This document shows positions 5,577 to 51,886 of a DNA stretch of 63,959 nucleotides, in pieces. Position 1 is the stretch's first letter. Each line of letters opens with the position of its first letter. The notes below the pieces were generated by a model, which was not told where the DNA came from, searched no databases, and worked only from the letters and a program-made list of their open reading frames with translations. A program made the position numbers and the translations under genes. This stretch comes from Melioribacteraceae bacterium (GTDB taxonomy: Bacteria; Bacteroidota; Ignavibacteria; Ignavibacteriales; Melioribacteraceae). The stretch covers positions 1 to 63,959 of the forward strand of contig JANQLA010000087.1 in assembly GCA_028280855.1 (NCBI GenBank), written 5' to 3'.

Positions 5577-6677
5577 ATGAATGTATTTACAAATGATATT
5601 GAGTTCCGAAAATGGATCTACATATTCATCATTCTCTTTGTTATCGGGCTTTTGAATTTCAGCATCATAGTAACTGAAAAAAGTATATACGATGAAAACG
5701 TAGAGTTCATATATCCTTTCGTGAATGAAATGACGGGATCGCTTACAACTATAATTCCTTTGCCTCTTCTTCTTGGATTGTTCAATAAACACCCAATCAG
5801 GTTAACAAATATATTCTATTCTCTTCCGATTTATTTGTTTGCGTCCGTTGTATTCGGTGTAACGCATACACTTCTTATGACGGTTAGCCGGGCGGCGATA
5901 TATCCCTTACTGGATATGGGTAATTACGACCCCGGAATATTTCATTTGCGTCTCCTCATGGAATACCAAAAGCAGTTTATTGTATTCTGGTTGGTTTACG
6001 CTGTAGTATATTTTGTGAACGCATACAAGGAAAAACAGAAAGAAAAATTAAAAGCCGCCGACCTCGAAAAACAGTTAACAAAAGCGCAGTTATCTAATTT
6101 ACAAAATCAGCTTAACCCGCATTTTTTATTCAACACGTTAAATATGATTTCATCCGAGATGTATAATAATCCAAAGGCAGCTGATACACTGATTGCAAAC
6201 TTGAGCGACTTGCTGCGAAGTTCATTTACAACAATAAAAAACGAAAAACATACCTTTAATGAGGAGATCAAACTTACCAATTTGTACTTAGATATAATGA
6301 AGGCAAGGTATCGCGAAAAGTTAAACGTGAAATTTAATATTGACAGCGAGGCACATTCTGCATTGATTCCGTGGTTTACGTTTCAGCCGTTTGTTGAGAA
6401 CTCTATTAAATTCGGTATTGAAGAAAACGAAAAGGTAAATATTACGATAACCAGCCTGGTAAGTGCGAATAATTTGATCATTTCAATTGAGGACGATGGT
6501 CCCGGCATCAATAACGATGAAAGTGATTATTTTAATAAAGGTGTCGGCCTTTCAAATATGAAAGAAAGACTTGAAAAACTATATGACGGGAAAGGATCTT
6601 TAACTCTCCGGGAGAACTTGCAGGGCGGTGTTACAATAAAAATAATTATCCCGTTTGAGATTGGTGAAGAAGCATGA
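5577..6677 (+). CDS. LytS/YehU-type sensor histidine kinase
   Basis: Hydrophobic N-terminal half, followed by LNPHFLFNTLNMISS (the His_kinase/LytS signature). The C-terminus looks like an HATPase (SIEDDGPGI...GVGLSNMKERL). Confidence 0.8.
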   Translation: MNVFTNDIEFRKWIYIFIILFVIGLLNFSIIVTEKSIYDENVEFIYPFVNEMTGSLTTIIPLPLLLGLFNKHPIRLTNIFYSLPIYLFASVVFGVTHTLLMTVSRAAIYPLLDMGNYDPGIFHLRLLMEYQKQFIVFWLVYAVVYFVNAYKEKQKEKLKAADLEKQLTKAQLSNLQNQLNPHFLFNTLNMISSEMYNNPKAADTLIANLSDLLRSSFTTIKNEKHTFNEEIKLTNLYLDIMKARYREKLNVKFNIDSEAHSALIPWFTFQPFVENSIKFGIEENEKVNITITSLVSANNLIISIEDDGPGINNDESDYFNKGVGLSNMKERLEKLYDGKGSLTLRENLQGGVTIKIIIPFEIGEEA

Positions 6678-7426
6678 TTAAAAAACTCAACATTCTGGTT
6701 GCAGATGACGAACCGGCAGCCAGGGAAAAGATTGTTTCGCTTTTAAATGACAAAGAAAATGTCGGTAATATTTTACAAGCCTGTAACGGGATAGACGCCG
6801 TTAGAATTATTGATGAAGAAAAACCGGACCTGGTTTTCCTGGATATACAAATGCCTAAACTGAAAGGATTAGAAGTCGTTGAAGCTGTTGGCGTTAAAAA
6901 TATGCCCGTGGTTATTTTTGTTACGGCATTTGATCAATATGCTATTAATGCTTTTGATCTTGAAGCGGTTGATTATTTGTTAAAGCCTTTTGACCCTCCG
7001 AGATTCGAGAAAGCATTTCAACGAGCAACAAAGTTGCTGGAACCTAAGAACAGATCAAACAATGACCTGCAAAAAATTATTACGGAGCTGCGACAGGGCA
7101 ATAGATTTAAAGATAAATTTCTTGTGAGCAAAAACTCCAAATACTTTTTTGTAAAGCCTGATGACATTTACTTTATATCCGCGCAGGAAAAATATGTGGA
7201 GTTGAATACAGAGCGTGAAAAATATTTACTACGCGCAACAATGAACAGCATTGAAGAGGGGCTCAACCCGGCTAAATTTAAACGTACTCACCGGTCATAC
7301 ATAGTAAACATCGAAAAGATAAAGGAAATAGAGCCGGTGTCGCACGGTGATTATACAATTCTACTTACCAACGGAAACAAAGTAAAACTCGCCAGGAGGT
7401 TTAGGGAGAAGATTTTTCATTCCTAA
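6674..7426 (+). CDS. LytTR/AlgR-family response regulator
   Basis: Receiver domain (ILVADDEP...DLVFLDIQMP...) plus a C-terminal LytTR-type DNA-binding region (FFVKPDDIYFISAQEKYVEL...RTHRSYIVNI). 4-nt overlap with the kinase gene. Confidence 0.85.
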   Translation: MIKKLNILVADDEPAAREKIVSLLNDKENVGNILQACNGIDAVRIIDEEKPDLVFLDIQMPKLKGLEVVEAVGVKNMPVVIFVTAFDQYAINAFDLEAVDYLLKPFDPPRFEKAFQRATKLLEPKNRSNNDLQKIITELRQGNRFKDKFLVSKNSKYFFVKPDDIYFISAQEKYVELNTEREKYLLRATMNSIEEGLNPAKFKRTHRSYIVNIEKIKEIEPVSHGDYTILLTNGNKVKLARRFREKIFHS

Positions 7427-9425: not shown

Positions 9426-9713
9426 TCAATTATGTGTAATTCTTATTTCTAAGCGGCAGTCTAAAGCTTCTAAATATTTTTTTATTGTTGCAAGAGACGG
9501 TGAGTGTTTACCGCTGCTAAGCGAGGACTCCAGCCTTGTAATTGCCTGCGATTTTGTTCCCATTTTATCTGCTATTTGCGCTTGACTAAGCCCGGTTTTT
9601 TTTCTTGCCCGAAGCATTTCTTTTAAAAGAGTAAATTCCGGCTCAAGCTTTTCATATTCTTTGCGCACAGACGTATTTTTTAGCGCTTTGCTTTTAAGCT
9701 CTTTATGTGTCAT
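9426..9713 (-). CDS. higA: XRE-family HTH antitoxin (HigA-like)
   Basis: 95 aa with the HTH GLSQAQIADKMGTKSQAITRLES. It overlaps the upstream toxin-like gene by 4 nt. Confidence 0.7.
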   Translation of the reverse strand: MTHKELKSKALKNTSVRKEYEKLEPEFTLLKEMLRARKKTGLSQAQIADKMGTKSQAITRLESSLSSGKHSPSLATIKKYLEALDCRLEIRITHN

Positions 9714-10036
9714 TTCGTTAATACCTCTTTAATCCTGTTTCTTGCAATTTCTATTTCTTTTTGGGGAATCTTTTGTGATTTCTTAATAAACAAATGAAGC
9801 ATTATAATTTTATTACCTAACATAGTACAATAAAACACTCGTGCTGTGCCCTCTTTACTTTTAATCCTTAGTTCAAGTAAACCACCACCAAGAGATTTCG
9901 TATGCGGCAATCCCAAGTTAGAACCAAATTCGAGCATTAAATCAGTCAGCCTTAAATAACGCGCTAAAAGACCGCTGGGTAGAGATAGAATTTTCTTTTC
10001 AAGCTCAGTACTGTAATATCCTATACTCCATTTCAT
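9710..10036 (-). CDS. higB: RelE/ParE-superfamily toxin of the Gp49/HigB type
   Basis: 108 aa. LELRIKSKEGTARVFYCTMLGNKIIMLHLFIKKSQKIPQKEIEIARNRIKEV resembles Gp49/HigB toxins. The toxin-first gene order matches HigBA modules. Confidence 0.65.
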   Translation of the reverse strand: MKWSIGYYSTELEKKILSLPSGLLARYLRLTDLMLEFGSNLGLPHTKSLGGGLLELRIKSKEGTARVFYCTMLGNKIIMLHLFIKKSQKIPQKEIEIARNRIKEVLTK

Positions 10037-10264: not shown

Positions 10265-10340
10265 TTGTCTTACCTAACTTTTCTAGGTATGTTTCGTCAT
10301 AACTACATAGAAAATCTAGGTATAAAGGAGAATTAGGTAT
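10265..10340 (+). promoter_or_regulatory. Candidate padR-array promoter with embedded TACCTA-N7-TAGGTA palindrome and three TAGGTAT repeats
   Basis: TTGTCT (10265..10270), a 17-nt spacer, then TATGTT (10288..10293). The spacer contains taccta (10271..10276) and taggta (10284..10289). TAGGTAT recurs at 10284, 10317 and 10334. The RBS aaggag lies at 10325..10330. Confidence 0.35.
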
Positions 10341-10685
10341 ATGCTATCGAAAAACTTAATGGCGGCGTCATCCAAACCGCTGATTCTTGCAATTCTTCGC
10401 GGAGGAGAGAATTACGGTTACCAGATAATCCAGCGGGTAAAAGAGTTATCCGGCGGAGAGCTTGAATGGGCTGAAGGAATGTTGTACCCGGTGTTACACA
10501 AAATGCAGAAAGACGGGTTAGTGCAAACCAAGTGGAAGTTATCGGATAACGGAAGGATGCGTAAGTATTACCGTTTAACAACCAAAGGCAGGGAAGCGCT
10601 TAATAATGAAAAACAGCAATGGTTAAAAGTGCACGGTATGCTTGAGAAAGTATGGCAGCCGGACGCTTCCCTGGGAACTACTTAA
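10341..10685 (+). CDS. PadR-family transcriptional regulator
   Basis: 114 aa. PLILAILRGGENYGYQIIQRVKELSGGELEWAEGMLYPVLHKMQKDGLVQTKWKLSDNGRMRKYYRLTTKGREAL is a textbook PadR winged-helix pattern. Confidence 0.9.
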   Translation: MLSKNLMAASSKPLILAILRGGENYGYQIIQRVKELSGGELEWAEGMLYPVLHKMQKDGLVQTKWKLSDNGRMRKYYRLTTKGREALNNEKQQWLKVHGMLEKVWQPDASLGTT

Positions 10686-10702
10686 TAACATTTGGGGGAA
10701 AT

Positions 10703-13345
10703 GTGTTTAACCTTGAACAAGCAATTAGCATGTGGAAAAAATCGCTTCGTAAAAATCCATCGCTCGAAGACGGTTACATTGAAGAGTTGGAACAGCACCT
10801 TCGCGATTTTATTGACGAATGTTTGAATAAAGGAATGGACGTTGAAGATTCGTTTAATGAAGCTGTAAAAAGTATTGGAGATGCTAAACGGCTTGAAAAG
10901 GAATACTTTAAATCTCGCACCGTAGTTCCCTTAAGCAACTCTCTTACCGGCCGTTTGTGGATGCCCGCTTTATTTGCTAATTATTTTAAGATAGCAGTGA
11001 GGCGATTGGTAAGAAATAAAAGCTACGCATTTATAAATATAATCGGCTTATCCGTAGCAATGGCCGCAAGCTTGCTAATTGTATTGTTTATTGCATACGA
11101 ATTAAGTTTCGATTCTTTCCACGCAAAAGGCGATAACATTTATCGACTAAACGAGATTCAAAAGTTAAAAGGCCAAAGCACTCAGCACGTCGCTTTGTCT
11201 ATGTATCCAATGGGACCAACTTTAAAGCAGGATTTCCCTGAGGTTAAGGATTTTACAAGAGTGCTGAGAGGCCCAAGCGTAGTAAATAAAAAAGATAAAT
11301 ATTTTGTGCTTGATATGTCATTTCATGTTGATCCGGCGTTCTTACAAATTTTCGATTTCGAAGTCGTTCACGGCGATCCTGCTACATCGCTTGGTCAGCC
11401 GGGAAACGTAATTTTAACGAGAGCAACGGCATTAAAAATTTTCGGTACTGAAAACGCGGTTGGAAAACAATTTGAAGCCGACTCAGCCGTGCATACCGTA
11501 ACCGGTATTTTAGAAAACGTTCCGAAGAATTCTCATTTACAATTTGATGCTTTGTTCTCAGTGATGAGCGCCGAAAATGACTGGATGCGCGATAACTGGG
11601 ATTCAAATTTTCTTGTAACTTATCTTTTGCTTGAAGAAGGCATTGATATAAAAAAGCTCGAAAGCAAATTTCCCGACTTTTTAACCAAGTACATCGGCGA
11701 AGATGCTACCGAAACATATACGCTTTACTTGCAAAAGTTAAGCAACATACATCTTGGTTCGATGGACATAACGCACGACTACAGGAATTTTCAGAAGTTC
11801 AATATAAATTCAATTTACACTTTCGGCACGCTGGCTCTCTTAATAATACTTATCGCCGGAATAAACTTCATGAATATTTCCGTTGCGCAATCATCCGTCA
11901 GGTCCAAGGAAGTCGGCATAAGGAAAACATTGGGAGCTTTCCGCGAACAAATTAAACGACAATTCATAAGTGAATCCCTTATTTCAACTATTGCTTCGTT
12001 TCTGATTTCGATCGGGATAGCATTCCTCGTGCTTCCTTATTTGAATGATGTAATAGGCAGGGAGTTAAATTTAAGTTTGCTTACCAAACCTTTATTTGTA
12101 TTCACATTAATAGGCGTTTCGCTTTTTGTTGGGTTATTGGTCGGGTTGTATCCTGCATTTGTTCTTTCAGCTTTCAGTCCTGCAAAAGCATTGGTAAAAA
12201 AGATTCACTCTAAGGGAAAATATTTTTCATTTAGAAGTTTTTTGGTTGTTACGCAGTTCGCTATTTCCATAGCTCTTATTGTTGCAACGGGCATCACCAT
12301 AAAACAGTTGGATTTTATAAGGAATAAAAACCTGGGCTTTGAAACCGATCAGGTGATCCTGGTAAAGATGAACAACACCGCCAATGAAAAATACGACCTG
12401 CTTAAGAATGAAATGAAGCTTAATCCGGACGTTATTGATGTTACACATTCGTCTCAGAAACTTGTAAACAACATACACCAGATGGGAGTGCGTTACGAAG
12501 GGGCGGATGATGTGGTTAAGTTGTCTATTTCAAATGTAAGCGTCGACTACAATTTTATACCGTTTTACGAAATGGAGATAATAGAAGGAAGAAATTTCTC
12601 CGAAGAAATTAAGACGGATTTTACGAATGCGTATATAATAAACGAAACTCTTCAAAATCAAATCGGCTGGGAAAATCCGGTGGGCAAACGGATAAAACTT
12701 GCCTGGTTAGAAGAAATGGGTAAAGTGATTGGCGTTGTTGAAGATTTCAATTTTAATTCGCTCCACAACAAAGTAGAGCCGTTATTGATGAGCGTGCAAG
12801 GATGGGGAGCTTCGGATTTAGCTGTAAAGATAAACGCATCAGCCGCCGGTAGGGCAATCAGCCAGATAAAGGATACGTGGAATAAGCATGTGCCTGATCG
12901 TCCTTTCGAGTATGAGTTTATGGATGAGCATTTTAAAAGCTTGTACGAGTCAGATGAAAAAACGAGCAATGTAATATCATTAATTGCGGGGTTATCAATA
13001 TTTATTGCCTGCCTCGGTTTGTTCGGGTTATCGTCAATAATTGTATCACAGCGAACTAAAGAAATCGGGATAAGGAAAGTTCTCGGCGCTTCATTAATTC
13101 AGTTATTCTCCAATCTTTCAAGCGATTTTCTAAAACTGGTATTGGTTGCATTTATAATATCGGTACCGGTCACCATGTATTTTATGAATAGCTGGCTTGA
13201 CGGATTCGTTTATAGAATTGAGCCGGGAGTATGGCTGTTTGTTTTATCCGGCTTACTGGCAATTTTTATTGCGCTTATTACAATCTCTTTCCACACAGTA
13301 AAAGCGTCGTTAACAAATCCAATTAAATCATTGAGATACGAATAG
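10703..13345 (+). CDS. Headed duplicated FtsX/MacB-type permease, array unit 1
   Basis: GTG start at 10703 chosen because VFNLEQAISMWKKSLRKNPSLEDGYIEELEQHLRD aligns with the paralog heads. The track ATG at 10652 would overlap padR. Two FtsX blocks are marked by SKEVGIRKTLGA and TKEIGIRKVLGA. The tail is NPIKSLRYE*. Confidence 0.85.
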   Translation: MFNLEQAISMWKKSLRKNPSLEDGYIEELEQHLRDFIDECLNKGMDVEDSFNEAVKSIGDAKRLEKEYFKSRTVVPLSNSLTGRLWMPALFANYFKIAVRRLVRNKSYAFINIIGLSVAMAASLLIVLFIAYELSFDSFHAKGDNIYRLNEIQKLKGQSTQHVALSMYPMGPTLKQDFPEVKDFTRVLRGPSVVNKKDKYFVLDMSFHVDPAFLQIFDFEVVHGDPATSLGQPGNVILTRATALKIFGTENAVGKQFEADSAVHTVTGILENVPKNSHLQFDALFSVMSAENDWMRDNWDSNFLVTYLLLEEGIDIKKLESKFPDFLTKYIGEDATETYTLYLQKLSNIHLGSMDITHDYRNFQKFNINSIYTFGTLALLIILIAGINFMNISVAQSSVRSKEVGIRKTLGAFREQIKRQFISESLISTIASFLISIGIAFLVLPYLNDVIGRELNLSLLTKPLFVFTLIGVSLFVGLLVGLYPAFVLSAFSPAKALVKKIHSKGKYFSFRSFLVVTQFAISIALIVATGITIKQLDFIRNKNLGFETDQVILVKMNNTANEKYDLLKNEMKLNPDVIDVTHSSQKLVNNIHQMGVRYEGADDVVKLSISNVSVDYNFIPFYEMEIIEGRNFSEEIKTDFTNAYIINETLQNQIGWENPVGKRIKLAWLEEMGKVIGVVEDFNFNSLHNKVEPLLMSVQGWGASDLAVKINASAAGRAISQIKDTWNKHVPDRPFEYEFMDEHFKSLYESDEKTSNVISLIAGLSIFIACLGLFGLSSIIVSQRTKEIGIRKVLGASLIQLFSNLSSDFLKLVLVAFIISVPVTMYFMNSWLDGFVYRIEPGVWLFVLSGLLAIFIALITISFHTVKASLTNPIKSLRYE

Positions 13346-13354
13346 GGATAAATA

Positions 13355-16009
13355 ATGTTCAATCTTAATAATGAAATAGATAAATGGAAAAAAACGTTTC
13401 GTAAAAATCCGTCGCTCGAAGACGGCTATATTGAAGAGTTGGAGCAGCACTTACGAGATGTTATTGAAGAATGCATGGAAAAAGGATCGGATGTTGAAAC
13501 AGCATTTAATGAAGCTGTAAAAAAGATAGGCAGCGGCGCTAGTATCAGCGATGAGTATTATAAGTCCGCTACAAGAAACAAGTTTAGCGCAAGACCTTCC
13601 TGGCGTGTACCGAGGTGGATGCCTGTAATGATTTGGAATTATTATAAAGTAGCTCTGCGAAATCTGAAGCGGAACAAGGGATTTGCGTTAATAAATATCC
13701 TTGGGTTGAGTATCGGTATCGCTGTTTTTGTTTTAATCACCTTTTATACTCAAAATGAATTAAACTACGACGGCTTTCACAAGGATGGAGAAAGAATATA
13801 CAGGCTGCTGCGGGAAGCGCCTAAATCTAAAGGAGCATATAAAATAGCAGTGACATCCGGCCCGTTCGCACCTGCAATTAAAACAGATTTTTCCGGCGTG
13901 GTAGATGAAGTGTTGAGAGTTTGCCCGGCAGACGGATTGGTCAGCTATCTCGATCAAAATATATGGGAAGACCGCTTTTATTTAGCCGACAATCATTTTT
14001 TTAATTTCTTCTCGTATGAATTATTGACCGGCAATAAAGATGAAGTGCTAAACGGTCCAAACAAACTGGTTATCTCTGACGAAACGGCTGTTAAATATTT
14101 TGGGGATGAAAACCCGGTCGGAAAGCTGATAAAGCTGGATAACCAATATTCCTTCGAGGTTACCGGGGTCTTTCGCTCGAAGCATCCGAACTCTCATTTG
14201 AACTTCGACTTTGTTGCCTCCCTTCAAACGTTTGAAGGAACATGGTTATTGGATGAATGGTGGAGCAATAGTGTTTTCACATATCTCAAACTTAATCCTA
14301 CTACGGATGTAAACTTATTGGATTACCAGCTTGACGCGTTTATGCTTAAATACTTTGGAGATGATTTCGCCCAAACTAAGCTTCCGATGACCCTTACTCT
14401 TGAGCGGCTTGAAAATATTTATATGAACGCAGACTCAAGATATGATCATATTGCTCACGGGAATAAAACGGTTGTAATAATTTTTTCTTTTGTCGCGGTC
14501 TTTGTGCTTCTTATTGCGTGTATCAATTTTATGAACCTATCGTCCGCTAAGTCAGTTAAACGTGCCAAGGAAATAGGTGTTAGAAAAGTAATCGGCGCGC
14601 AAAGGAAAAGTCTTGTAATGCAGTTCATTTCAGAGGCAACAATCTACAGCTTGGCATCCGGCGCTGTTGCCGCTTTACTAATTATATTTATCACTCCTCA
14701 TTTCGAAAATCTGACTGCTTCAGATATTGCCTTCCCTATTGATAATCCTTTGTTCTATTTAGTTTCCTTATTATTCCTGGTTTTCCTTGGCTTCCTTGCT
14801 GGAAGCTACCCTGCATTTGTTCTTTCCGGGTTCAAGCCTGTTAAAGCGCTTTCAAATGAGAAGCTTGCTGACGGTGGATCTGGAATCAGGAGAATATTAG
14901 TTGTTACGCAGTTTGTAATATCTATCGTATTAATATCCGGTGTTATTGTTGTATTCAGCCAAACCAGCTTTTTGATCAATAAAGACAGTGGTTTTGATAA
15001 GGAGCAGGTTGTTCTGATACGTGCAAACTCACCCGAAATAAGGAGCAAACGATTCGAGTTAAAAGAAGCATTAATTAAAGAGAGTGCAATTAAGAGTGTT
15101 TCGTTTATGTCCGGCGAGCCCGGCGGCTTTCACGATAGCTTTGCATTTAAGATTGAAGATAAAGGCGGTGAGTTTTTTCAAATGCGATCTTTGGTAACCG
15201 ACTTCGAATACTTGTCTTTGTATAATGTTGAACTCCTGCACGGAAGAAATTTCTCGGAACAATACTCGCTGGATTCAACACAAGCAGTAATTATAAATGA
15301 AACTGCAGCGAGGTACCTGGACTGGCAGCCAGCCGAAGCAATTGGCAAAAGAATGGCGATTCGTTTCTATAATGAAGAACAGTACCGTTCAGTTATCGGC
15401 GTTGTAAAAGATTATCATTTTACTTCGCTTCACACCAACATAGACCCGTTAGTAATTTTTCCCGCTAATGATCATCGTGTAATAGCAATTAAAATAAAAT
15501 CAGATGATATATCTTCCGTATTGAATACAATCGAAGCAAAGTTCGGCGAACTTATTCCCGGCTTCCCGTTTCAATACGAGTTTTTAGATGAAACATTTGA
15601 AGCGAATTACTCTGCTGAAAAAAAGCAGCTTTCAGTGCTTAGTATCCTTACCGTGCTTGCTATAACAATCGCCGTACTTGGATTGTTCGGCTTGTCGACA
15701 CATTCTGCCGAGTCTCGTAAAAAAGAAATCGGGATTAGAAAAGTGCTGGGCGCTTCAGCACAACGACTGATTGTCCTGCTCATCGGTAATTTTTTAAAAT
15801 TGGTTCTTGTATCAAATATTATTGCTATACCGGTAAGCTGGTATATATCGAAACATTGGCTTTCTAACTTTGCATATCGCACCGAGCTGACGATTGTACC
15901 TTTTGCACTGACTTTAATTGCAACCGTATTGATTGCCTTAATAGCTACCGGGCATCAAACCTTAAAAGCAGTATTTATGAACCCCGTGGAAAGTATAAAA
16001 AATGATTAA
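13355..16009 (+). CDS. Headed duplicated FtsX/MacB-type permease, array unit 2
   Basis: Head MFNLNNEIDKWKKTFRKNPSLEDGYIEELEQHLRD. Motifs AKEIGVRKVIGA and KKEIGIRKVLGA. 9-nt junction to unit 1. Confidence 0.9.
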   Translation: MFNLNNEIDKWKKTFRKNPSLEDGYIEELEQHLRDVIEECMEKGSDVETAFNEAVKKIGSGASISDEYYKSATRNKFSARPSWRVPRWMPVMIWNYYKVALRNLKRNKGFALINILGLSIGIAVFVLITFYTQNELNYDGFHKDGERIYRLLREAPKSKGAYKIAVTSGPFAPAIKTDFSGVVDEVLRVCPADGLVSYLDQNIWEDRFYLADNHFFNFFSYELLTGNKDEVLNGPNKLVISDETAVKYFGDENPVGKLIKLDNQYSFEVTGVFRSKHPNSHLNFDFVASLQTFEGTWLLDEWWSNSVFTYLKLNPTTDVNLLDYQLDAFMLKYFGDDFAQTKLPMTLTLERLENIYMNADSRYDHIAHGNKTVVIIFSFVAVFVLLIACINFMNLSSAKSVKRAKEIGVRKVIGAQRKSLVMQFISEATIYSLASGAVAALLIIFITPHFENLTASDIAFPIDNPLFYLVSLLFLVFLGFLAGSYPAFVLSGFKPVKALSNEKLADGGSGIRRILVVTQFVISIVLISGVIVVFSQTSFLINKDSGFDKEQVVLIRANSPEIRSKRFELKEALIKESAIKSVSFMSGEPGGFHDSFAFKIEDKGGEFFQMRSLVTDFEYLSLYNVELLHGRNFSEQYSLDSTQAVIINETAARYLDWQPAEAIGKRMAIRFYNEEQYRSVIGVVKDYHFTSLHTNIDPLVIFPANDHRVIAIKIKSDDISSVLNTIEAKFGELIPGFPFQYEFLDETFEANYSAEKKQLSVLSILTVLAITIAVLGLFGLSTHSAESRKKEIGIRKVLGASAQRLIVLLIGNFLKLVLVSNIIAIPVSWYISKHWLSNFAYRTELTIVPFALTLIATVLIALIATGHQTLKAVFMNPVESIKND

Positions 16010-16025
16010 ACGTAAAGGCTCAAAT

Positions 16026-18653
16026 ATGATCAATCTTGAAAAAGAAATAAACAAATGGAAAAAATCGCTTCGCAAACATACATCATTGGAAGAAGGAAAC
16101 ATTAAAGAACTCGAAGCTCATTTAAGAGATGCTTATGAAATTGAAATTAGAAAAGGTAAATCAAGCGTTGAAGCATTCCGGGACGCGAAAGATGCTTTAG
16201 GTGAATGCGGGAGTATTAATAATGAATATAGGAAATCGCATGCTCATCGAACGGAAGGCTCAAAAGCAGGGCAGATGTTTGCCGCAGCCCTTTGGTTAAG
16301 TTACTTAAAAGTGGGCGTAAGAAACTTAACAAAGAACAAGAGTTATTCTTTGATAAACATTGGCGGATTAGCAATTGGAATTCTGGTGTGCGCTTTTATT
16401 GCTTTGTTCATTAACAATGAACTTAGTTACGATAATTTTCATAAAGACGGAAATCGAATATACAGAGTGGTAAAAGATTTCGGGGGAACACTACCGGATG
16501 CTACAACGCCGCCGGCTTTAGCTCCTGCATTGTATTCCGAAATTCCTGAGGTTGAGGAGTCTATAAGAATAATGCCCGAATGGGACGCTAAAATTTTGTT
16601 GAGATATGGTGACGCAAGTTTTTACGAAAGCAATTTTTTACTGGCGGACTCAAATTTCTTTTCAATGTTTACTGTAAATCCTGTTGCAGGCGATTTGGAA
16701 TCAGCCTTGATCGATAAAAACTCTATTGTAATTACAGAGTCACTTGCTAAAAAGTATTTTGGAGACTACAATCCTATCGGAAGTGTTATAAATGCTGAAC
16801 GATCAGGAAGGAAAAAGGACTTAACAGTTACTGCTGTTGTAGAGGACTACCCGGAAAACGCGCACTTTGATTTCGATTTTATTATTCACTCATATGATAA
16901 TATTGATGAACATTGGGGATGGTACAATTTTTATACTTATATAAAGCTTAAGCCCAATATTAATATTGCAAATGTTGATCCAAAAATTCAGGAGTTATAT
17001 GAAAAAAATTGGGAGGGCGGCACCAACGTTTTTTATTCGCAGCCTATTTCCGATATCCATCTTCATTCAAACCTTAAATGGGAACTCGGAACAAACGGAA
17101 GCATCAACCAGGTAAACACATTTGCAATTATCGCCATCTTTGTTCTCATCATAGCAGCTATTAATTATATAAATTTGGCAACTGCAAGGTCTGCACTTCG
17201 TGCAAAAGAAGTGGGCATTCGTAAAGTTAGCGGCGCGTTTCGATTTTCACTTATAAAACAATTTTTGATTGAATCGGTTATCACTTCTGTTTTAGCGTTT
17301 ATTATAGCTGTAGGCGTGTTGTATTTTTTGTTGCCGACTTTAAATGAACTATTCAATTCCAACCTTATTTTATTTAATTCAAGTACAACATCGTTATTGA
17401 TAGCTCTTGCAATTGCTACGATTCTTGTCGGGATAATATCGGGCATCTACCCGGCCTTATATCTTTCAAAATTTCAGCCCGTAGTAGTGTTAAAAGATTT
17501 AAAAAATCTTAAAGGCGGTTTGCTTTGGCTGCGAAAGGGATTGATTGTAACACAATTCACGGTTTCAGCAATTTTAATTATCGGAACACTTGCAATACGG
17601 GATCAATTAAACTTCATCCGGGAATTCGATTGGGGAATAGAAAAAAATCACACGCTTGTTTTGCGTAACACCGATAGCTTCGAAAACCGGGACGCACTTA
17701 GAAACGAATTACTGAAATTTTCTTCTATAACGGAGGTGGGAAATGCATCTACAGTTATTGGCGAGTTGAACTGGACAAGAGGTATAAGAGAAAAAGGAAA
17801 GCCAGGTGAAGAAGATGTGTTAACTAACTTTTTAATTGTAGATGAAAACCTGCTAAATGTGCTTAACTTAAAAATGATTGAGGGCAGGAAGTTCTCCGAA
17901 AAATATCCTTCAGATCTGGAGGATGGAATAATCCTTTCGCGCAAGGCAATTAAAGAATTAGAAATAACTGAACCTGCTGTTGGAAAGCAAGTCGTTTGGG
18001 CGACACGCAACGATACGTTGATTTACCGAACAATAGTGGGAGTAACCAGCGACTTTTATTTCAGCTCTTTGCGAGAAGAAATTAAACCTTTTGCATTCGT
18101 ACCAAGCAAGTACAATTTAGCAACAACATACGTAAAACTAGCCGAAGACAATTACAGCGAAACCATTGAATACATAAGTGAAGTATGGAAGAAAATTTTA
18201 CCAAACAGACCAATGGAGTATTCTTTCCTGGATGACACCTTCGCGCAAATGCATAAACAAGATGCAAAGTTCAGTAAAATAATCGGAGTAATGACTTCAC
18301 TCGCTATCGTTATTGCACTGATGGGATTATTCGCTTTGACCGCTTATACGGTTGAGCGTAAAACTAAAGAAATAGGAATAAGGAAAGTGCTGGGAGCGTC
18401 GGTAAAATCAGTCGTTGTAATGATATCTGCCGATTTATTAAAATTGGTGGTTATCTCAATCATAGTCGCAATTCCAACAACCTGGCTGTTGATTGACAGA
18501 TGGTTGGAGGAATTTGCTTATAAAACTGAGTTAACAATTTGGACGTTTATTTTGGGGTCGATATTAACAATAACGATTTCAATAATAACTATAAGTTACA
18601 AATCAATAAAAGCCGCAACGGCAAACCCGACTAACTCATTGAAATATGAATAG
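16026..18653 (+). CDS. Headed duplicated FtsX/MacB-type permease, array unit 3
   Basis: Start set at MINLEKEINKWKKSLRKHTSLEEGNIKELEAHLRD (ATG 16026) by alignment with the paralogs. Motifs AKEVGIRKVSGA and TKEIGIRKVLGA. Confidence 0.88.
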   Translation: MINLEKEINKWKKSLRKHTSLEEGNIKELEAHLRDAYEIEIRKGKSSVEAFRDAKDALGECGSINNEYRKSHAHRTEGSKAGQMFAAALWLSYLKVGVRNLTKNKSYSLINIGGLAIGILVCAFIALFINNELSYDNFHKDGNRIYRVVKDFGGTLPDATTPPALAPALYSEIPEVEESIRIMPEWDAKILLRYGDASFYESNFLLADSNFFSMFTVNPVAGDLESALIDKNSIVITESLAKKYFGDYNPIGSVINAERSGRKKDLTVTAVVEDYPENAHFDFDFIIHSYDNIDEHWGWYNFYTYIKLKPNINIANVDPKIQELYEKNWEGGTNVFYSQPISDIHLHSNLKWELGTNGSINQVNTFAIIAIFVLIIAAINYINLATARSALRAKEVGIRKVSGAFRFSLIKQFLIESVITSVLAFIIAVGVLYFLLPTLNELFNSNLILFNSSTTSLLIALAIATILVGIISGIYPALYLSKFQPVVVLKDLKNLKGGLLWLRKGLIVTQFTVSAILIIGTLAIRDQLNFIREFDWGIEKNHTLVLRNTDSFENRDALRNELLKFSSITEVGNASTVIGELNWTRGIREKGKPGEEDVLTNFLIVDENLLNVLNLKMIEGRKFSEKYPSDLEDGIILSRKAIKELEITEPAVGKQVVWATRNDTLIYRTIVGVTSDFYFSSLREEIKPFAFVPSKYNLATTYVKLAEDNYSETIEYISEVWKKILPNRPMEYSFLDDTFAQMHKQDAKFSKIIGVMTSLAIVIALMGLFALTAYTVERKTKEIGIRKVLGASVKSVVVMISADLLKLVVISIIVAIPTTWLLIDRWLEEFAYKTELTIWTFILGSILTITISIITISYKSIKAATANPTNSLKYE

Positions 18654-18661
18654 GTAATGAT

Positions 18662-21322
18662 ATGTTTAACCTCGAAAGAGAAATCGGTAAATGGAAAAAA
18701 TCGCTTCGCAAAAATCCTTCGCTCGAAGACGGCTACATTGAAGAAATTGAACAGCATCTTCGAGATAGTATTGAAGCAAATCTTAACATGGGAATTGAAG
18801 AAAAGGCGGCATTCAAAGAAGCGGTAAAAATTGTAGGCGAGGGAACGCAGCTAAGTTCGGAGTATTACAAATCCGTTACGACTAATAAATTCAGTGCTCG
18901 ACCTTCGTGGCAAGCGCCGTGGTGGATGCCGGTTATGCTATGGAATTATCTTAAAGTCGCGCTCCGGAATTTTAACCGTTATAAAGGATATTCATTTATA
19001 AATATTGCCGGTTTGGGGATTGGCATAACATGTAGCGTACTTGTTTTAATTTATGTTTTACATTTATTGAGTTTCGATGCTTATCATACTGATGTTGATA
19101 GATTATACCGTGTTGGACTTAACATAAAAACAAATTTAGGAACGACGGGATATGCATTAAGCGTTCCGCCACTTGCTTCAAAGCTGAAATCCGATTTTCC
19201 GCAAGTTGAAGAAACTGCAAGAATATTTTACTTCAATAACAAGCGGGCAATAAAAAATAAAGACGACTTATTTTATGAGGATGGCTTTGTTTATGCTGAT
19301 AATGAGATTTTTAATGTGTTAACAATTCCTTTTATTGCCGGTGATCCCCAAAATGCTCTTGTTAATCCTTTTTCACTGGTTATACCGGAAAGGATTTCTA
19401 ATAAACTATTTGGAGAGGAGAGTGCCTTACATAAAACAATAAATCTTGACGGCTTTGATTATAAAGTAACAGGTGTAATTAAAGATCCTCCCAGTAATAC
19501 ACACTTACCTTTTGACCTCTTTATTTCAATGCATGACTTAAGAAATCCGCCATGGATGCAGGATTGGACATGGCCGGGGATGTTCACTTATGTAAAGCTG
19601 AAGCCGAATGTTAATGTTGCTGATTTTGAAAAATCAATAATTAATTTAATTGAGGCGAGCATTAATTCTAAATCAAGTATAACTGATAAAAAACACGAGT
19701 TGTTTTTGCAGCCGGTACGAGAAATTTATTTAAGCACTCCTTTGGAATATGAAGCGAATCCCGGAAATCCAGCATTAGTAGGGCTATTGATTACTGTTGG
19801 TGCTTTTATTCTTTTGATAGCATGTTTTAATTATATAAATCTTGTTACTGCAAGGATGATAAAGAGATCAAAAGAAGTCGGAATGAGAAAAGTTTTAGGA
19901 GCAAAAAGGACACAGCTTTTCTGGCAATTTTTAAATGAGTCGTTTTTTATGACGTCCTTCGCATTTTTTATCGGATTACTTATTCTATACATGTTATTTC
20001 CTTTCTTTCAAGAACTAACAGGAGTAAACATTGAACCATCCACTTTATTTGGATGGAAATATATAGCTTGGTTAATCTTACTGTTGTTAACAATTACGAT
20101 TATCTCCGGGTTTTATCCTTCATTTACTCTTTCTTCTTATTCACCAACAAAAGCGCTAAAAAATAATCCAAAGTTTGGATTCAAAGGAAATTCTCTTAGA
20201 AGGGTTTTGGTTATTAGTCAATTTGTAATGTCGATTATTTTAATCTTTTGCACTATAGTTATGTCTGATCAATTCGGTTTTATGAAGAATAAAAATCTTG
20301 GTTTTAACAATGAACGGAAGCTCATACTTAATGTTTACGAGATGAGCTCATTAACAACAAATTCAGAATCCATAAAAGGAAAGCTTTTAGAAATTCCTTC
20401 TATCAAGGAAGTCGCGGTTTTATCAAATGTTCCGGGAAAGGGAATCGGGAGTTTAACCACAAAGGGAACCGGGGAAAATGCTTCAAAAGAACATATGATG
20501 TACTATAACTTTGTCGACTATCAATTCATTGACAGCTATCGAATCGGATTAGTAGAAGGAAGGAATTTTATTGCAAATAGTATGAAAGATATACTGGAAT
20601 CGTGTTTAATAAATGAATCGGCTGCAAATACATTTGGATGGACGCCTCAAAAAGCAATCGGAAAAAAAATAATTACTGGTCTAAGAGGAACAACAAAGGA
20701 AATAATTGGTGTTGTAGACAACTTTCATTACAGAGGAGTGCAATATAAAATTGAACCACTTGTAATAGAATATGATCCAACAATGTTCACAACCATAAGT
20801 GTAACATTAACTAATGACGATATACCTAATTCAATTGAAAATATTAAAAAAACGTGGTCATCAATATTTCCGAACAAACCCTTTGAATATTTCTTTTTAG
20901 ATGAATTATGGAACGAGCTTTATGAAACGGAAGAAAACACAAAAAGGATATTAAACATTTTTACAAGTTTGTCAATAGTAATTGCGGCAATTGGATTATT
21001 TGGGCTTGTAGCATTCATTGCCGAAAACAGGAAAAAAGAAATTGGACTAAGAAAAGTAATGGGATGTTCGACAAAAGGCGTAATGATGCTGATGGTTTGG
21101 CAATTTATTAAATGGATTATTATATCAAATGTTATTGCAATTCCAACAGCTTATTATTTTATGAATAAATGGCTCCAAGACTTTCCTTCTAGAATTAATA
21201 TTGAACCCTGGATAATAGCTGCGACTTTCACTATTTCAGTACTTGTTGCTGCGATTACTGTCCTGTATCAATCTATAAGAGCAGCATTAGGAAATCCTAT
21301 TGAGGCGCTGAAATATGAATAA
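18662..21322 (+). CDS. Headed duplicated FtsX/MacB-type permease, array unit 4
   Basis: Head MFNLEREIGKWKKSLRKNPSLEDGYIEEIEQHLRD. Motifs SKEVGMRKVLGA and KKEIGLRKVMGC. 8-nt junction. Confidence 0.9.
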   Translation: MFNLEREIGKWKKSLRKNPSLEDGYIEEIEQHLRDSIEANLNMGIEEKAAFKEAVKIVGEGTQLSSEYYKSVTTNKFSARPSWQAPWWMPVMLWNYLKVALRNFNRYKGYSFINIAGLGIGITCSVLVLIYVLHLLSFDAYHTDVDRLYRVGLNIKTNLGTTGYALSVPPLASKLKSDFPQVEETARIFYFNNKRAIKNKDDLFYEDGFVYADNEIFNVLTIPFIAGDPQNALVNPFSLVIPERISNKLFGEESALHKTINLDGFDYKVTGVIKDPPSNTHLPFDLFISMHDLRNPPWMQDWTWPGMFTYVKLKPNVNVADFEKSIINLIEASINSKSSITDKKHELFLQPVREIYLSTPLEYEANPGNPALVGLLITVGAFILLIACFNYINLVTARMIKRSKEVGMRKVLGAKRTQLFWQFLNESFFMTSFAFFIGLLILYMLFPFFQELTGVNIEPSTLFGWKYIAWLILLLLTITIISGFYPSFTLSSYSPTKALKNNPKFGFKGNSLRRVLVISQFVMSIILIFCTIVMSDQFGFMKNKNLGFNNERKLILNVYEMSSLTTNSESIKGKLLEIPSIKEVAVLSNVPGKGIGSLTTKGTGENASKEHMMYYNFVDYQFIDSYRIGLVEGRNFIANSMKDILESCLINESAANTFGWTPQKAIGKKIITGLRGTTKEIIGVVDNFHYRGVQYKIEPLVIEYDPTMFTTISVTLTNDDIPNSIENIKKTWSSIFPNKPFEYFFLDELWNELYETEENTKRILNIFTSLSIVIAAIGLFGLVAFIAENRKKEIGLRKVMGCSTKGVMMLMVWQFIKWIIISNVIAIPTAYYFMNKWLQDFPSRINIEPWIIAATFTISVLVAAITVLYQSIRAALGNPIEALKYE

Positions 21323-21332
21323 AGGAGGAATA

Positions 21333-23987
21333 ATGTTCAACTTAGAAAAGGCAATTAAAAAATGGCGTAAGTGTCTAAGAAAGAATCAGACACTTGAAGA
21401 CGGCTACATTGAAGAAATTGAACAGCACCTTCGAGATAGTATTGAATCAAATCTTAACATGGGAATGGAAGAAGAAGCGGCATTCGAAAAAGCGGTAGAA
21501 ATTGTAGGCGAGGGAACGCAGCTAAGTTCGGAGTATTACAAATCCGTTACGACTAATAAATTCAGCGCTCGACCATCGTGGCAAGCGCCGTGGTGGATGC
21601 CGGTATTAATTTGGAATTATCTTAAAGTCGCGCTCCGGAATTTTAACCGTTACAAAGGATATTCATTTATAAATGTTGCCGGGTTAGCCTTGAGCGTTAC
21701 GGTCTTAGTGTATATTTTTCTCTGGATAAGTAATGAGTTGTCATATGACAAATTTCATTCGAAATCCGAAAATATTTACAGGGCTGTTTGGGAAGCTAAG
21801 TACGGAAATAATGAATGGGCGATTCCACTTGTGAGCCCACCCTTGGAACGAACACTAAAAAACAAATTCCCTGAAGTTGAATCCGCTGTCAGCTTGATGA
21901 AAGGAAGTAAAATATTTCAATTGAAAGACGAATATGTTGAAGAGAAGAAAGTCCTATACACAACAGAATCTTTTTTCGAAATATTTGATGTTAACTTTAT
22001 CCACGGGAGTCCGGGAAATTTATTGAACGACCCAAGCTCTGTAGTGATTACGGAGGAATTTGCAAAAAGATTTTTCGGTGATAAAAATGCGACGGGCAGA
22101 ACACTAAAAACTAATAGCGGGGAATTATTAAAAGTAAAAGCGGTAGTCGAAAGCTTTCCTCAACAATCTCATTTCAAGTTCAACATTTTAGCATCTTTAA
22201 ACAGTTTATCATACTATAAAAGCAGGGAAAATAGATGGGGATTTGCAACCGTATACACATATGCTCTTCTTAATGAAGGGATCGAAATAAAAAGTCTGCA
22301 GGAAAGCCTTAACAGTTATATTCTAGATGAAATCTCTGGTGCTAACCTGAAGAATTCAGATAACTATGACAGGTACTACTTTCAAGCATTGGAAGATATT
22401 CATTTGCACTCCGGGCTTAGCTACGAGTTACAGACAAACGGAAATATTTTATATGTGTACATACTTACAACCGTGGCGGTTCTGATTTTATTACTGGCAA
22501 TAATTAATTTCGCAAACCTTGCGTCGGTTCGATCAATTGAAAGGTTAAATGAAATAGGTATCCGAAAAGTTTTGGGAGCTGAAAAGAAGCAGGTAATTAA
22601 TCAATTTCTTGCGGAAGCGTTTTTTCAAACTGTTGTTGCTGTTTTTATTGGCATTACAATTTTATTTCTTGCCGTACCGGCTATAAACAGCTTTACTAAA
22701 GCATCCATTTCCAGTGCGTCATTGATAAATTCTGATGTAATATTACTTATTATATCCTTATCTGTTTTTATTGCTCTATCAGCCGGCTCGTATCCTGCTT
22801 TTTATATTTCTAAATTTAACCCGGCCCGAATAATTAAGAAACAAATCAGTGCAAAGCCGCATCACGGTAATTTCCGTAAAATACTTGTCTCGGTACAATT
22901 TATTCTCTCTACATGTATTATTGCCGGTACACTTGTAGTAATAAGCCAGCTGGATTTTATCAAAAATAAAAACCTGGGATTTGATAAAGAGCATGTTCTG
23001 ATAGTGAAGAACCTTTCTTCAGTTCGAAGCCAGCTTAATACCTTTAAAAACGAAATTACATCGCAATCCGGTGTAGTTGATGCATCTGCTGTTCAAACGT
23101 TACCTTCTTACGAGTTCGACTCTACTATATTCGGGTTGGAACAGCCGGCAAATTATAAAGAATCTTCACTAACATATAATTTTATAGACGAAAAATTTGT
23201 CGATGTACTAAAGCTAAATGTTATTGAGGGAAGAAACTTCTCGAAAGAATTTAGTACAGACTCGCTTTCTTTTCTCATAAATGAATCGGCTGCAAAGGCG
23301 TTTGGATGGGATAACCCGATAGGCAAAAAATTAGGTTTTGGAAAATCGGTAGAATTAGACGGACCGGTAATAGGCGTAATTGAAGACTTTAATTTCCGGT
23401 CGCTTCATAAAAGTATTGAGCCCATAATATTTCCTTACCTCAGGTGGTCTCCTAATTATTTCGCTGTAAGACTTCAGCCGGGAAGTATGGCAGAACACAT
23501 TAGCAGGATTGAAGAAATTTGGAAAAAATATGTTCCCAATCGACCATTTGAATACACATTTCTCGATGAACAATTTGCCGGGTTATACCAAAGTGAAACA
23601 AATATGGCTAATGTACTAAGCGCCTTTGCGCTTATCTCAATATTTATCGCCTCAATAGGATTATACGGGTTATCATCAATTATTGTTAAACAGAGATACA
23701 AAGAAATTGCAGTAAGAAAGGTGATGGGTGCTACGGTTTCCAAGATATTTGTACTGGTATCAAAAGAATTTTTCATAATCGTATTCATATCAAGTCTGAT
23801 CTCGCTGCCCGTTTCATATTCCGTAATGTCGTCCTGGTTAAACAATTTCGCTTATAAAACAGAGCTGGGTTTAATGATTTTTATAGCATCGGTGCTTATA
23901 GTTTTAACAACCGCCTTGATATCCACGGGTTTGCAAGCAATTAAAGCAGCAATAGCTAACCCAGTAAACTCAATTAAATACGAATAG
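21333..23987 (+). CDS. Headed duplicated FtsX/MacB-type permease, array unit 5
   Basis: Start set at MFNLEKAIKKWRKCLRKNQTLEDGYIEEIEQHLRD (ATG 21333). Motifs LNEIGIRKVLGA and YKEIAVRKVMGA. The RBS aggagg lies just upstream. Confidence 0.88.
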   Translation: MFNLEKAIKKWRKCLRKNQTLEDGYIEEIEQHLRDSIESNLNMGMEEEAAFEKAVEIVGEGTQLSSEYYKSVTTNKFSARPSWQAPWWMPVLIWNYLKVALRNFNRYKGYSFINVAGLALSVTVLVYIFLWISNELSYDKFHSKSENIYRAVWEAKYGNNEWAIPLVSPPLERTLKNKFPEVESAVSLMKGSKIFQLKDEYVEEKKVLYTTESFFEIFDVNFIHGSPGNLLNDPSSVVITEEFAKRFFGDKNATGRTLKTNSGELLKVKAVVESFPQQSHFKFNILASLNSLSYYKSRENRWGFATVYTYALLNEGIEIKSLQESLNSYILDEISGANLKNSDNYDRYYFQALEDIHLHSGLSYELQTNGNILYVYILTTVAVLILLLAIINFANLASVRSIERLNEIGIRKVLGAEKKQVINQFLAEAFFQTVVAVFIGITILFLAVPAINSFTKASISSASLINSDVILLIISLSVFIALSAGSYPAFYISKFNPARIIKKQISAKPHHGNFRKILVSVQFILSTCIIAGTLVVISQLDFIKNKNLGFDKEHVLIVKNLSSVRSQLNTFKNEITSQSGVVDASAVQTLPSYEFDSTIFGLEQPANYKESSLTYNFIDEKFVDVLKLNVIEGRNFSKEFSTDSLSFLINESAAKAFGWDNPIGKKLGFGKSVELDGPVIGVIEDFNFRSLHKSIEPIIFPYLRWSPNYFAVRLQPGSMAEHISRIEEIWKKYVPNRPFEYTFLDEQFAGLYQSETNMANVLSAFALISIFIASIGLYGLSSIIVKQRYKEIAVRKVMGATVSKIFVLVSKEFFIIVFISSLISLPVSYSVMSSWLNNFAYKTELGLMIFIASVLIVLTTALISTGLQAIKAAIANPVNSIKYE

Positions 23988-39953: not shown

Positions 39954-40005
39954 CTCTCTTGCGGAGCTCTTGCCTGCGGAGTGATACATTAAAATGGAGA
40001 GAGAA

Positions 40006-49869: not shown

Positions 49870-51886
49870 CTATTTCATCATCTTCTTTAGCTTTTCAATT
49901 TCATCACGCAATTGTGCGGCCTTTTCAAACTCAAGGTCTTTAGCAGCCTGTAGCATTTCTTCAGTCATTTCTTCGATAAGATCGTGTTTCTGCTCGTTTG
50001 TCATATATCTTATAACCGGTTCGGCAACTTTTGAGAAAGACGCCATTTCTTTCTCGTCTTCTTTGTATCTTACATCGGCTACAGATGTTGAAGCCATAAT
50101 TTCTTCGCGGCTTTTATAAATTGTTTGAGGTGTGATTCCATGCTTCTCGTTGTATTCGGATTGCAATATACGTCTTCTTGTTGTTTCCTCAATCGTTTTT
50201 TTCATTGAGTCTGTAATTTTATCGGCATACATAATTACCTTGCCGTCAACATTCCGAGCCGTTCTACCGGCAGTTTGCATTAACGATCGCTCGCTTCTCA
50301 AGAAACCTTCCTTATCAGCATCAATAATTGCCACAAGCGAAACCTCCGGTAAATCCAAACCTTCGCGGAGCAGGTTAACGCCAACTAAAACATCAAAATC
50401 GCCGATTCTAAGGTCGCGGATAATCTCAACCCTTTCCAATGAATCAATATCACTATGAATATAACGAACTTTTATTTCCAGGCGGTCTAGGTAATCGGTT
50501 AAATCCTCAGCCATTTTTTTTTGTTAAAGTTGTAACTAACACTCGTTCTTTTTTTGCAATTCGTTTTCTAATTTCTCCGATTAGATCATCAATCTGATTT
50601 TTTACAGGGCGAATCTCAATTTCCGGATCCAGCAGCCCGGTTGGCCGTATAACCTGCTCTACATAAACGCCTTTGCTTTTTTCTAACTCCAAATCACCCG
50701 GGGTAGCGCTCACATAAATAACCTTGTTAAGCAATTTATCGAACTCTTCAAATTTCAGCGGACGATTATCAAGAGCGGACGGAAGCCGGAAACCGTGTTC
50801 CACAAGCGTTTCTTTCCTGGAGCGGTCGCCGTTGTACATGCCGCGAATTTGAGGCAGTGTTACATGAGATTCATCAATAATCAACAGGTAGTCCTTTGGA
50901 AAATAATCGAACAAACAGGCCGGACGAGATCCGGGTGGACGTCCGTCCATATGACGCGAGTAATTCTCAACACCGGCACAATATCCTATCTCGCGCATCA
51001 TTTCGATATCGTACTTTGTTCGTTGCTCAAGTCGCTGAGCTTCAAGATATTTTTCATCCTTCCAGAAATATTGTAAACGTTCCTTTAACTCTTCTTCGAT
51101 TGTTACTATTGCCCGATTCACTTGATCTTTTGTAGTAACAAAATATTTAGCAGGATATATAGCGGTTGATTCAACTTCTTCAATATACTCACCGCTGATC
51201 GAATCAATAATTGAGATGCGTTCGATCTCGTCATCCCAAAACTCAATTCGTATAGCTTCTTCGTATTGATACGCAGGAATAACTTCAATCACATCGCCTC
51301 TAACACGAAAAGTTCCGCGGCTAAACTCAATATCATTACGCACGTAATAAATGTCAATCAACTGACGCATAAGCTTTTTGCGTTCAATCACCTGGCCTTT
51401 TTTAACGAAAGTTATCTGGTTTGCATATTCGTCCGGAGCACCGATTCCATATATACAGCTAACGCTTGCAACAATGATAACGTCGTTGCGCCCTTCAATA
51501 AGTGATGTTGTTGCCTTTAACCTAAGGCGGTCAATCTCTTCGTTTACGGAAAAGTCTTTTTCAATATACAGATCCCTTTTAACTACGTATGCTTCGGGTT
51601 GGTAGTAATCGTAGTAGCTTATAAAAAATTCAACGGCGTTGTTAGGAAAGAATGATTTAAATTCGCCGTATAGTTGCGCTGCTAATGTTTTGTTGTGAGA
51701 AATAATAAGCGTTGGTTTATTATAGTTCGTAATAACATTAGACATAGTATATGTTTTACCGCTGCCCGTAACCCCGAGGAGCACTTGATGATCTATTCCT
51801 TTATTTAAACCATTGGTCAATTCATCAATAGCTCCAGGCTGATCACCCGAAGGCTTGTAGTTTGAAACGAGTTCAAAATTATTCAT
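49870..51886 (-). pseudogene. uvrB: uvrB (excinuclease ABC subunit B) split by a +1 frameshift in an A9 homopolymer
   Basis: ORF 50507..51886 (459 aa, GVTGSGKT Walker A, ends ...[11 protein letters not shown]) and ORF 49870..50514 (214 aa, starts MAEDLTDYL...) together make one ~670-aa UvrB. The junction is the T9 run on the plus strand at 50514..50522. With eight As it would read [15 protein letters not shown], as in intact UvrB. Confidence 0.9.

Follow-up and report, generated by a model that had tools for sequence, protein, structure and literature searches.

A padR-led operon of twelve head-bearing FtsX/MacB-type permeases as a probable large instance of the HAAS-PadR dyad in a Melioribacteraceae bacterium

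In the HAAS-PadR dyad, which was defined in a 2024 mSystems paper, a HAAS domain of three helices, the third kinked at a conserved GxP motif, is found on membrane proteins with a stand-alone padR gene always adjacent, and a conformational signal is proposed to pass from the domain to PadR (PMC11237479). The architectures described include a fusion to FtsW/RodA as well as fusions to FtsX-like transmembrane (TM) regions with MacB/PCD domains, for example ACO32024.1 (PMC11237479). In Listeria, the chief targets of the PadR repressors LstR and LltR are the operons that encode them, and membrane proteins of this kind are encoded in those operons as well (PMC6624303). Here, we describe a stretch of 63,959 nt from a Melioribacteraceae bacterium (contig JANQLA010000087.1 of assembly GCA_028280855.1, positions 1 to 63,959; hereafter the window) in which one padR gene is followed by 12 permease genes that share a conserved N-terminal domain, referred to as the head. 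We read this region as a padR-led operon that exemplifies the HAAS-PadR dyad on a large scale, in which the heads modulate PadR, and we put the probability of this reading at roughly 60%. The underlying domain idea is not new, as HAAS domains on FtsX/MacB_PCD permeases next to PadR have already been published and NCBI annotation covers the prefix as well as the ADOP (Acidobacterial duplicated orphan permease) proteins and the PadR family that goes with them. What may go beyond the published record is the 12:1 size of the array, its presence in Ignavibacteriota-type genomes, a candidate operator, and a quantitative association of padR with headed versus headless permeases.

The padR gene (10341-10685, + strand) encodes a short, single-domain winged helix-turn-helix regulator of 114 amino acids (aa; Pfam PadR, 5.8e-25), and a PadR search of the whole window bore out the original prediction that it is the only one present. 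The ORF (open reading frame) listing and translation place padR and the 12 headed permease genes (~870-897 aa each) in tandem on the + strand with intergenic gaps of -8 to 71 nt. The first permease, unit 1 (10652-13345, + strand; 897 aa as called), has a start that overlaps the end of padR and contains two MacB_PCD and two FtsX matches by Pfam. The permease bodies combine two MacB_PCD and two FtsX regions in one polypeptide, with 8 TM helices (4+4) and two extracytoplasmic MacB_PCD domains.

A conserved head of about 90 aa on 12 FtsX-type bodies had been proposed from the sequence, with unit 1 as its example (10703-10990), and this head is seen in all 12 units; in unit 1 the domain and its linker occupy 10706-10978 (+ strand). 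All 12 units open with FNLEKEIxKWKKSLRKNPSLEDGYIEELExHLRD...G...AF..A...IG, and their alignment (A1) has 13 invariant columns and a mean column identity of 63%. After the head, each unit continues through a variable linker into a basic amphipathic stretch (NYxKVALRNxxRxKG) and then TM1, and because the basic stretch and TM1 come next, the positive-inside rule would place the head in the cytoplasm. Among the 11 intact paralogs, identity is 80% across head residues 1-30, 34% across the bodies, and 30% across the two extracytoplasmic domains. Homogenisation of heads within a locus is mild (identity 0.78 within loci vs 0.67 between loci). A helix 1 that is near-invariant in 12 diverged paralogs is compatible with one common binding partner. 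Searched against 1.84 billion proteins at E<=1e-3, a head profile built from 14 sequences recovered 4290 cluster representatives, so the head motif lies far past chance; the matches are mostly FtsX fusions of ~880 aa, together with some other multi-TM proteins. A word-indexed homolog search with a 109-aa head query, which is too short for this type of search, returned 3 matches only. Four representatives of 450-540 aa (P0152, P0174, P0232, and P0265) carry two head copies, each followed by its own hydrophobic multi-TM-like block, and a Pfam scan found neither FtsX nor any other Pfam domain in them; either gene calling has joined tandem genes, or the proteins are truly duplicated internally.

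The head is also linked to PadR by gene neighbourhoods across genomes. When GTDB genomes were scanned with the head as seed, 14 loci emerged, the closest of which are Melioribacteraceae and Ignavibacteria metagenome-assembled genomes, and padR lies directly upstream of the first headed permease in 12/12 of the loci with usable upstream DNA. These related loci hold 1-4 headed units per array, making the 12 units of the window the largest array among them. As an unbiased control, a metagenome scan was seeded with permease bodies only, and 158 near-complete units were classified. Headless units had padR upstream in 2 cases and no padR in 115, units with a head of the window's type (type 1) had padR upstream in 3 cases and lacked it in none (one of these three padR assignments was made by hand, as the start codon had been called too far upstream), and units with another extension of at least 60 aa had padR upstream in 18 cases and no padR in 3. 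When both head types are pooled, with 20 of 24 linked to padR, and compared with headless units, the linkage has a Fisher p = 2e-18. In total, padR is directly upstream in 15/15 testable type-1-head loci (12 GTDB and 3 metagenome) vs 2/117 headless relatives, and the association of the head with adjacent padR genes that the original prediction had anticipated is therefore present across genomes. This linkage of headed versus headless units indicates that it is the cytoplasmic prefix, and not the permease body, that travels with padR.

Most of the non-type-1 extensions of at least 60 aa, which have padR upstream in 18/21 cases, look like a second, unrelated permease prefix that reads PPRxAxxLL...GDLEExY...G...A...YW, and the two examples scanned match NF038404 (perm_prefix_2). 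Carriers of this second prefix include the metagenome loci L026, L028, L034, L044, L049, L056, L071, L076, L101, and L103, among others, as well as the protein P0032. Two different heads thus appear to have been recruited to PadR.

Three further loci show other arrangements of these genes. In L004 (8551-14111) and L013 (13341-16270, - strand), the type-1 array has as its neighbour another padR, which is divergent (E ~1e-6 to the window PadR) and is followed by FtsX permeases that are long enough for a prefix and have no type-1 head, which suggests that separate cognate PadR-head pairs lie side by side. On a Spirosoma oryzicola plasmid (L018, NZ_CP089544.1; 5989-9321 and 4471-5396), padR is followed first by a separate 159-aa protein, head-like at its N-terminus and with a hydrophobic tail, and next by a headless 803-aa permease, an arrangement that may be a split version of the head-permease fusion. 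The opposite strand of this locus has another padR, and the 184-aa protein encoded after it matches perm_prefix_1 weakly (16.8 bits).

The identity of the head was assessed against curated domain models. The NCBIfam model NF038403, "permease prefix domain 1" (perm_prefix_1), is matched by 12/12 heads and reaches its cut-off of 30 bits in 9/12, with the nine passing heads scoring 30.7-45.2 bits. By unit, all on the + strand, the scores are 30.7 bits for unit 1, 34.0 bits for the head alone of unit 2 (13355-16009, head 13358-13636), 29.2 bits and thus just under the cut-off for unit 3 (16002-18653, head 16029-16298), 32.0 bits for unit 4 (18662-21322, head 18665-18943), 33.6 bits for unit 5 (21315-23987, head 21336-21614), 35.9 bits for unit 6 (23996-26641, head 23999-24277), 43.8 bits for unit 7 (26703-29306, head 26706-26981), 38.6 bits for unit 8 (29322-31952, head 29325-29600), and 34.7 bits for unit 9 (32024-34654, head 32027-32305). 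Unit 10 (34663-37314, head 34666-34941; 24.9 bits) and unit 11 (37329-39953, head 37332-37607; 22.0 bits) are under the cut-off, and the split unit 12 (39994-42653, head 40009-40284) scores 45.2 bits.

The Pfam HAAS family, PF22564, is matched by 25/74 diverse head relatives, all sub-threshold and with a best E of 4.7e-4, while the next most frequent Pfam family has 4 matches among the same 74 relatives. In these matches, head residues 23-66 are colinear with HAAS positions 20-55. Weak HAAS scores of this kind were calibrated on PadR-adjacent partner proteins taken from Firmicutes plasmids. Those of the DUF1129/HAAS_TM type score 14-18 bits on PF22564; a Priestia protein among them, which is DUF1129/HAAS_TM by Pfam and has several homologs named "HAAS domain-containing protein" by NCBI, scores just 14.6 bits, and the PF22564 model is therefore narrow. 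NF038403 was also above its cut-off on the N-termini of two PadR-adjacent proteins with unrelated, non-FtsX bodies, a Clostridium multi-TM protein (L017, 34.1 bits) and a Subdoligranulum plasmid FtsW/RodA-like protein (L021, 47.4 bits), both of which match Pfam HAAS at E 0.02-0.04. The head domain is thus modular, occurring on FtsX, FtsW/RodA-like, and other multi-TM bodies, and the closest relatives of the window bodies are mostly headless. On these sequence comparisons, we conclude that "permease prefix 1" and HAAS are two names for one PadR-partner domain, to which the window heads belong.

An AlphaFold2 model of the head (74-sequence alignment; pLDDT, the predicted local distance difference test score, 81.3) has helices at residues 3-15, 22-41, and 46-58, a break at the invariant G58, and a further helix at 63-73, and as a model it is compatible with the published fold of three helices, the last of them kinked. 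Many head relatives have the P of the GxP motif (IGEPE, IGRPE, LGDPG).

Several results weigh against this reading. A single-sequence Pfam scan of two window heads gave no HAAS or DUF1700 match at any reported E-value, the head relatives match PF22564 only under its gathering score of 27 bits, and the head family consensus sequence reached only E = 2.1 in the Pfam scan. An hhalign comparison of the head profile with 11 N-termini of the DUF1129/HAAS_TM type gave a probability of 8.5%, with helix 2 differing in length by one turn, and the GxP motif is a G without the P in 12/12 window heads. Foldseek searches of the PDB with two AlphaFold2 head models (pLDDT 66 and 81) gave no match at E <= 0.001; the top matches were unrelated helical fragments, and the DUF1048 structure 2O3L, cited in PMC11237479, was not recovered. 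A sequence search of solved structures with head profiles A1 and A3 returned nothing under E 0.06. In a mirror-tree comparison, PadR similarity correlates with the head (rho 0.56) no better than with the body (rho 0.54), and phylogeny therefore explains the correlation. No ABC_tran match, the Pfam mark of an ATP-binding cassette (ABC) ATPase, was found in the 29 ORFs scanned, and 0 window ORFs have a Walker A and an ABC signature motif together; with no ABC ATPase gene in the window, whether the permeases transport anything is in doubt. Physical interaction between a head and PadR has not been demonstrated anywhere. In addition, the Listeria partner LftS is a DUF1048 protein and repression by LftR is independent of it (PMC4517056), making LftR/LftS a weaker example of a partner relay than the original prediction took it to be. 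The Listeria data cover the PadR autorepression half only, and the relay step is thus unproven; that a signal passes from head to PadR is something that we, like the literature, infer.

Of the original proposal of a HAAS-type PadR-partner head, the parts that stand are the NF038403 match in 12/12 heads, the colinear PF22564 matches in 25/74 relatives, and the linkage to padR, while the Pfam threshold, the hhalign comparison with the DUF1129-type set, and the Foldseek search did not favour it. The sub-threshold score of every Pfam HAAS match and the lack of support from hhalign and Foldseek are what would be expected if the head were a lineage-specific helical prefix with a superficial likeness to HAAS, its link to padR reflecting the shared ancestry of one mobile padR-permease cassette. 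We consider this highly improbable, as the curated NF038403 model is above cut-off on window heads and on PadR-adjacent Firmicutes proteins with different bodies, and the head family, with its 4290 representatives, also occurs on non-FtsX multi-TM proteins. Permeases of this family with a second, unrelated prefix (NF038404) are also linked to PadR (18/21 for non-type-1 extensions of at least 60 aa, most of which look like this prefix), and inheritance of one cassette would leave that unexplained.

In the permease, the head takes the place that the N-terminal ATPase has in MacB. This position, combined with no ATPase gene nearby, lends itself to an explanation in which PadR is an ordinary ligand-binding repressor (LmrR/LadR-like) of the permease operon and the head docks a shared ATPase, regulates the permease, or oligomerises, making no contact with PadR. 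Precedent exists in LadR and LftR, PadR regulators that answer compounds and control efflux genes (PMC6624303, PMC4517056), with LftR repression proceeding without LftS (PMC4517056). However, adjacency to padR is predicted by the head and not by the body (2/117 for headless permeases, almost always for headed ones), and the same head is found on unrelated membrane bodies that again adjoin padR. ATPase docking would explain neither observation, which argues against a purely ligand-sensing PadR, and we regard this explanation as unlikely.

The permease bodies were also compared with the ADOP family. The ADOP model TIGR03434 aligns end to end with the units at 260-314 bits (266 bits for unit 1) vs a cut-off of 622.3, and strict ADOP membership was rejected on these scores, which are well under the cut-off; the bodies are ADOP-like relatives. 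The best NCBIfam match of padR is TIGR03433 (padR_acidobact) at 93.9 bits, under the cut-off of 101.8. A Bce-type module was likewise rejected, as the operon has no ATPase or histidine kinase.

Upstream of padR lie two candidate PadR operators, both on the + strand. Candidate operator 1 (10271-10289) is a perfect palindrome, TACCTA-N7-TAGGTA, and candidate operator 2 (10304-10322), TACATA-N7-TAGGTA, lies 33 nt from it and 19 nt before the padR ATG. The whole window has two perfect copies of TACMTA-N7-TAKGTA, both of them upstream of padR. Allowing <=1 mismatch, the motif is present within 90 nt upstream of padR in 11/11 related loci vs ~0.3% of random 90-nt windows, and most related loci retain the proximal copy, at positions -34 to -41. 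If this conserved palindrome is taken as the candidate PadR operator, its placement would imply autoregulation. Between the two palindromes, at 10288-10295, is TATGTTTC, which we take to resemble the Bacteroidota -7 promoter element TAnnTTTG; if it is a real promoter element, the candidate operators would flank the promoter. A sigma-70 promoter scan gave no match at 10288-10295, and sigma-70 and terminator scans are uninformative for this lineage.

In the mechanism proposed here, a PadR dimer would bind the two TACMTA-N7-TAKGTA sites and repress its own operon, and the heads would bind PadR at the membrane. Engagement of a substrate or of envelope stress by the extracytoplasmic domains would change the conformation of the permease and thereby alter head-PadR binding, and PadR would then be captured or released, with induction of the operon. 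Since the first ~30 head residues are near-identical in the 12 paralogs and the extracytoplasmic domains have diverged to ~30% identity, a single repressor would receive reports from many permeases, each tuned differently. A more specific and more tentative version, which is possible but which we would not favour as it stands, is that one PadR dimer integrates 12 (or more) diversified FtsX/MacB-type receptors through the shared, near-invariant HAAS helix 1, forming a many-to-one array that needs no ATPase or kinase and has autoregulated induction through the operator pair. The original prediction had drawn a many-sensors-to-one-repressor circuit by analogy with Bce-type permeases, and both the circuit and the analogy remain inference.

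The 12 near-identical helix-1 surfaces would also provide a strong titration capacity, and the heads share a transcript with padR, the intergenic gaps being -8 to 71 nt. Both features would suit heads that serve as constitutive membrane anchors and titrate PadR, whether as a copy-number buffer or a feedback brake, while passing on no signal from the extracytoplasmic domains, with the 12 paralogs being substrate-diversified exporters or extractors; MacB-type proteins are established as mechanotransmission exporters. Such exporters would be left without an encoded ATPase partner in the window, and the published fusions of HAAS to many sensor-like domains, PspC, LiaF-TM, and Toastrack among them, argue for signalling (PMC11237479). 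The present data do not separate titration without signalling from modulation of PadR by the heads; we judge the former to be quite improbable and retain the latter as the preferred reading.

The far end of the array has two further features. Unit 12 is called as two ORFs (39994-41943 and 42003-42653) because the T run at ~41897-41903 holds a 1-nt frameshift, and one extra T repairs the frame to give ...GRFFSRQFSTDSTAIIINETAAKLLNWDKPIGK. The uvrB gene in the window is likewise split (49870-50514 and 50507-51886) by a frameshift in an A run at ~50511-50519. As both frameshifts fall in homopolymer runs, they are probably sequencing errors, and the genes probably not pseudogenes. A thirteenth permease (unit 13, 42911-45268, + strand; 785 aa) lies 257 nt past the array and has no match to the head hidden Markov model. 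Its nearest paralog is unit 9 (56% identity), followed by unit 7 (47%) and the others (35-41%), and it could stem from a recent duplication and have either lost the head or never acquired one.

On the other side of the operon, there is an overlap between a Gp49/HigB-like toxin gene (9710-10036, - strand; Pfam Gp49, 1.4e-25) and an HTH_3 antitoxin-like gene (9426-9713, - strand). Together they are probably a toxin-antitoxin pair (9426-10036, - strand), which diverges from the padR promoter region and lies just upstream of it. Approximately 3 kb upstream of padR is a two-component pair (5577-7426, + strand) consisting of a His_kinase/HATPase_c sensor and a Response_reg-LytTR regulator; the toxin-antitoxin genes and a gene for a membrane protein on the - strand lie between it and padR. 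No evidence was found tying this pair at 5577-7426 to the permease operon, and it was counted as a separate unit. A type IX secretion system (T9SS) sorting domain is also encoded in the window and, together with the closest related loci, assigns it to the Ignavibacteriota/Bacteroidota group.

For now, this analysis chiefly bears out what is already annotated and what a published computational model holds. HAAS-PadR, put forward as an alternative to two-component signalling, has never been tested biochemically, and a clean system for doing so is available in the locus and its relatives, with one repressor, a defined candidate operator, a short and highly conserved head surface (residues 1-35), and natural headless paralogs that can serve as controls. 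Should the relay be real, the large "orphan" families of duplicated FtsX permeases in Acidobacteria, Bacteroidota, and Ignavibacteriota would gain a role as sensors or flux reporters.

Among known systems, BceAB-BceRS is comparable by analogy only, in that an FtsX-family permease is the proposed sensor for a transcription regulator; unlike it, the window operon has no adjacent ABC ATPase or kinase, has a 4+4 TM body with two MacB_PCD domains, and has PadR as its output. The Listeria operons sigC-lstR-lmo0421, lltR-lmo0600-lmo0601, and lftRS share with the window a PadR that mainly represses its own operon together with a partner membrane protein, and the FtsW/RodA-like partner in Listeria has a counterpart in the FtsW/RodA-like protein of L021, whose NF038403 domain is shared with the window heads. 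They differ in having a single partner each, with bodies that are FtsW/RodA-like, DUF1700, or DUF1048, and a relay from partner to PadR is not demonstrated in them. The ADOP and TIGR03433 families resemble the window more closely in their NF038403 heads, duplicated FtsX/MacB_PCD bodies, absence of an adjacent ATPase, and a padR for which TIGR03433 is the nearest match, although the window bodies and padR fall under the cut-offs and are relatives, not members, of these Acidobacterial subfamilies. With the HAAS-PadR dyad itself, the locus shares an N-terminal domain, predicted to have three helices, on a multi-TM protein, an adjacent stand-alone padR, and the fusion to FtsX/MacB_PCD, and the conformational signal to PadR that is proposed for the dyad is also the mechanism of the original prediction. 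It differs from the dyad in that its heads are under the Pfam HAAS threshold and have no P in GxP, in that its host is of the Ignavibacteriota/Bacteroidota type and not from Acidobacteria or Firmicutes, and in having 12 headed permeases per PadR vs 1-4 in related loci.

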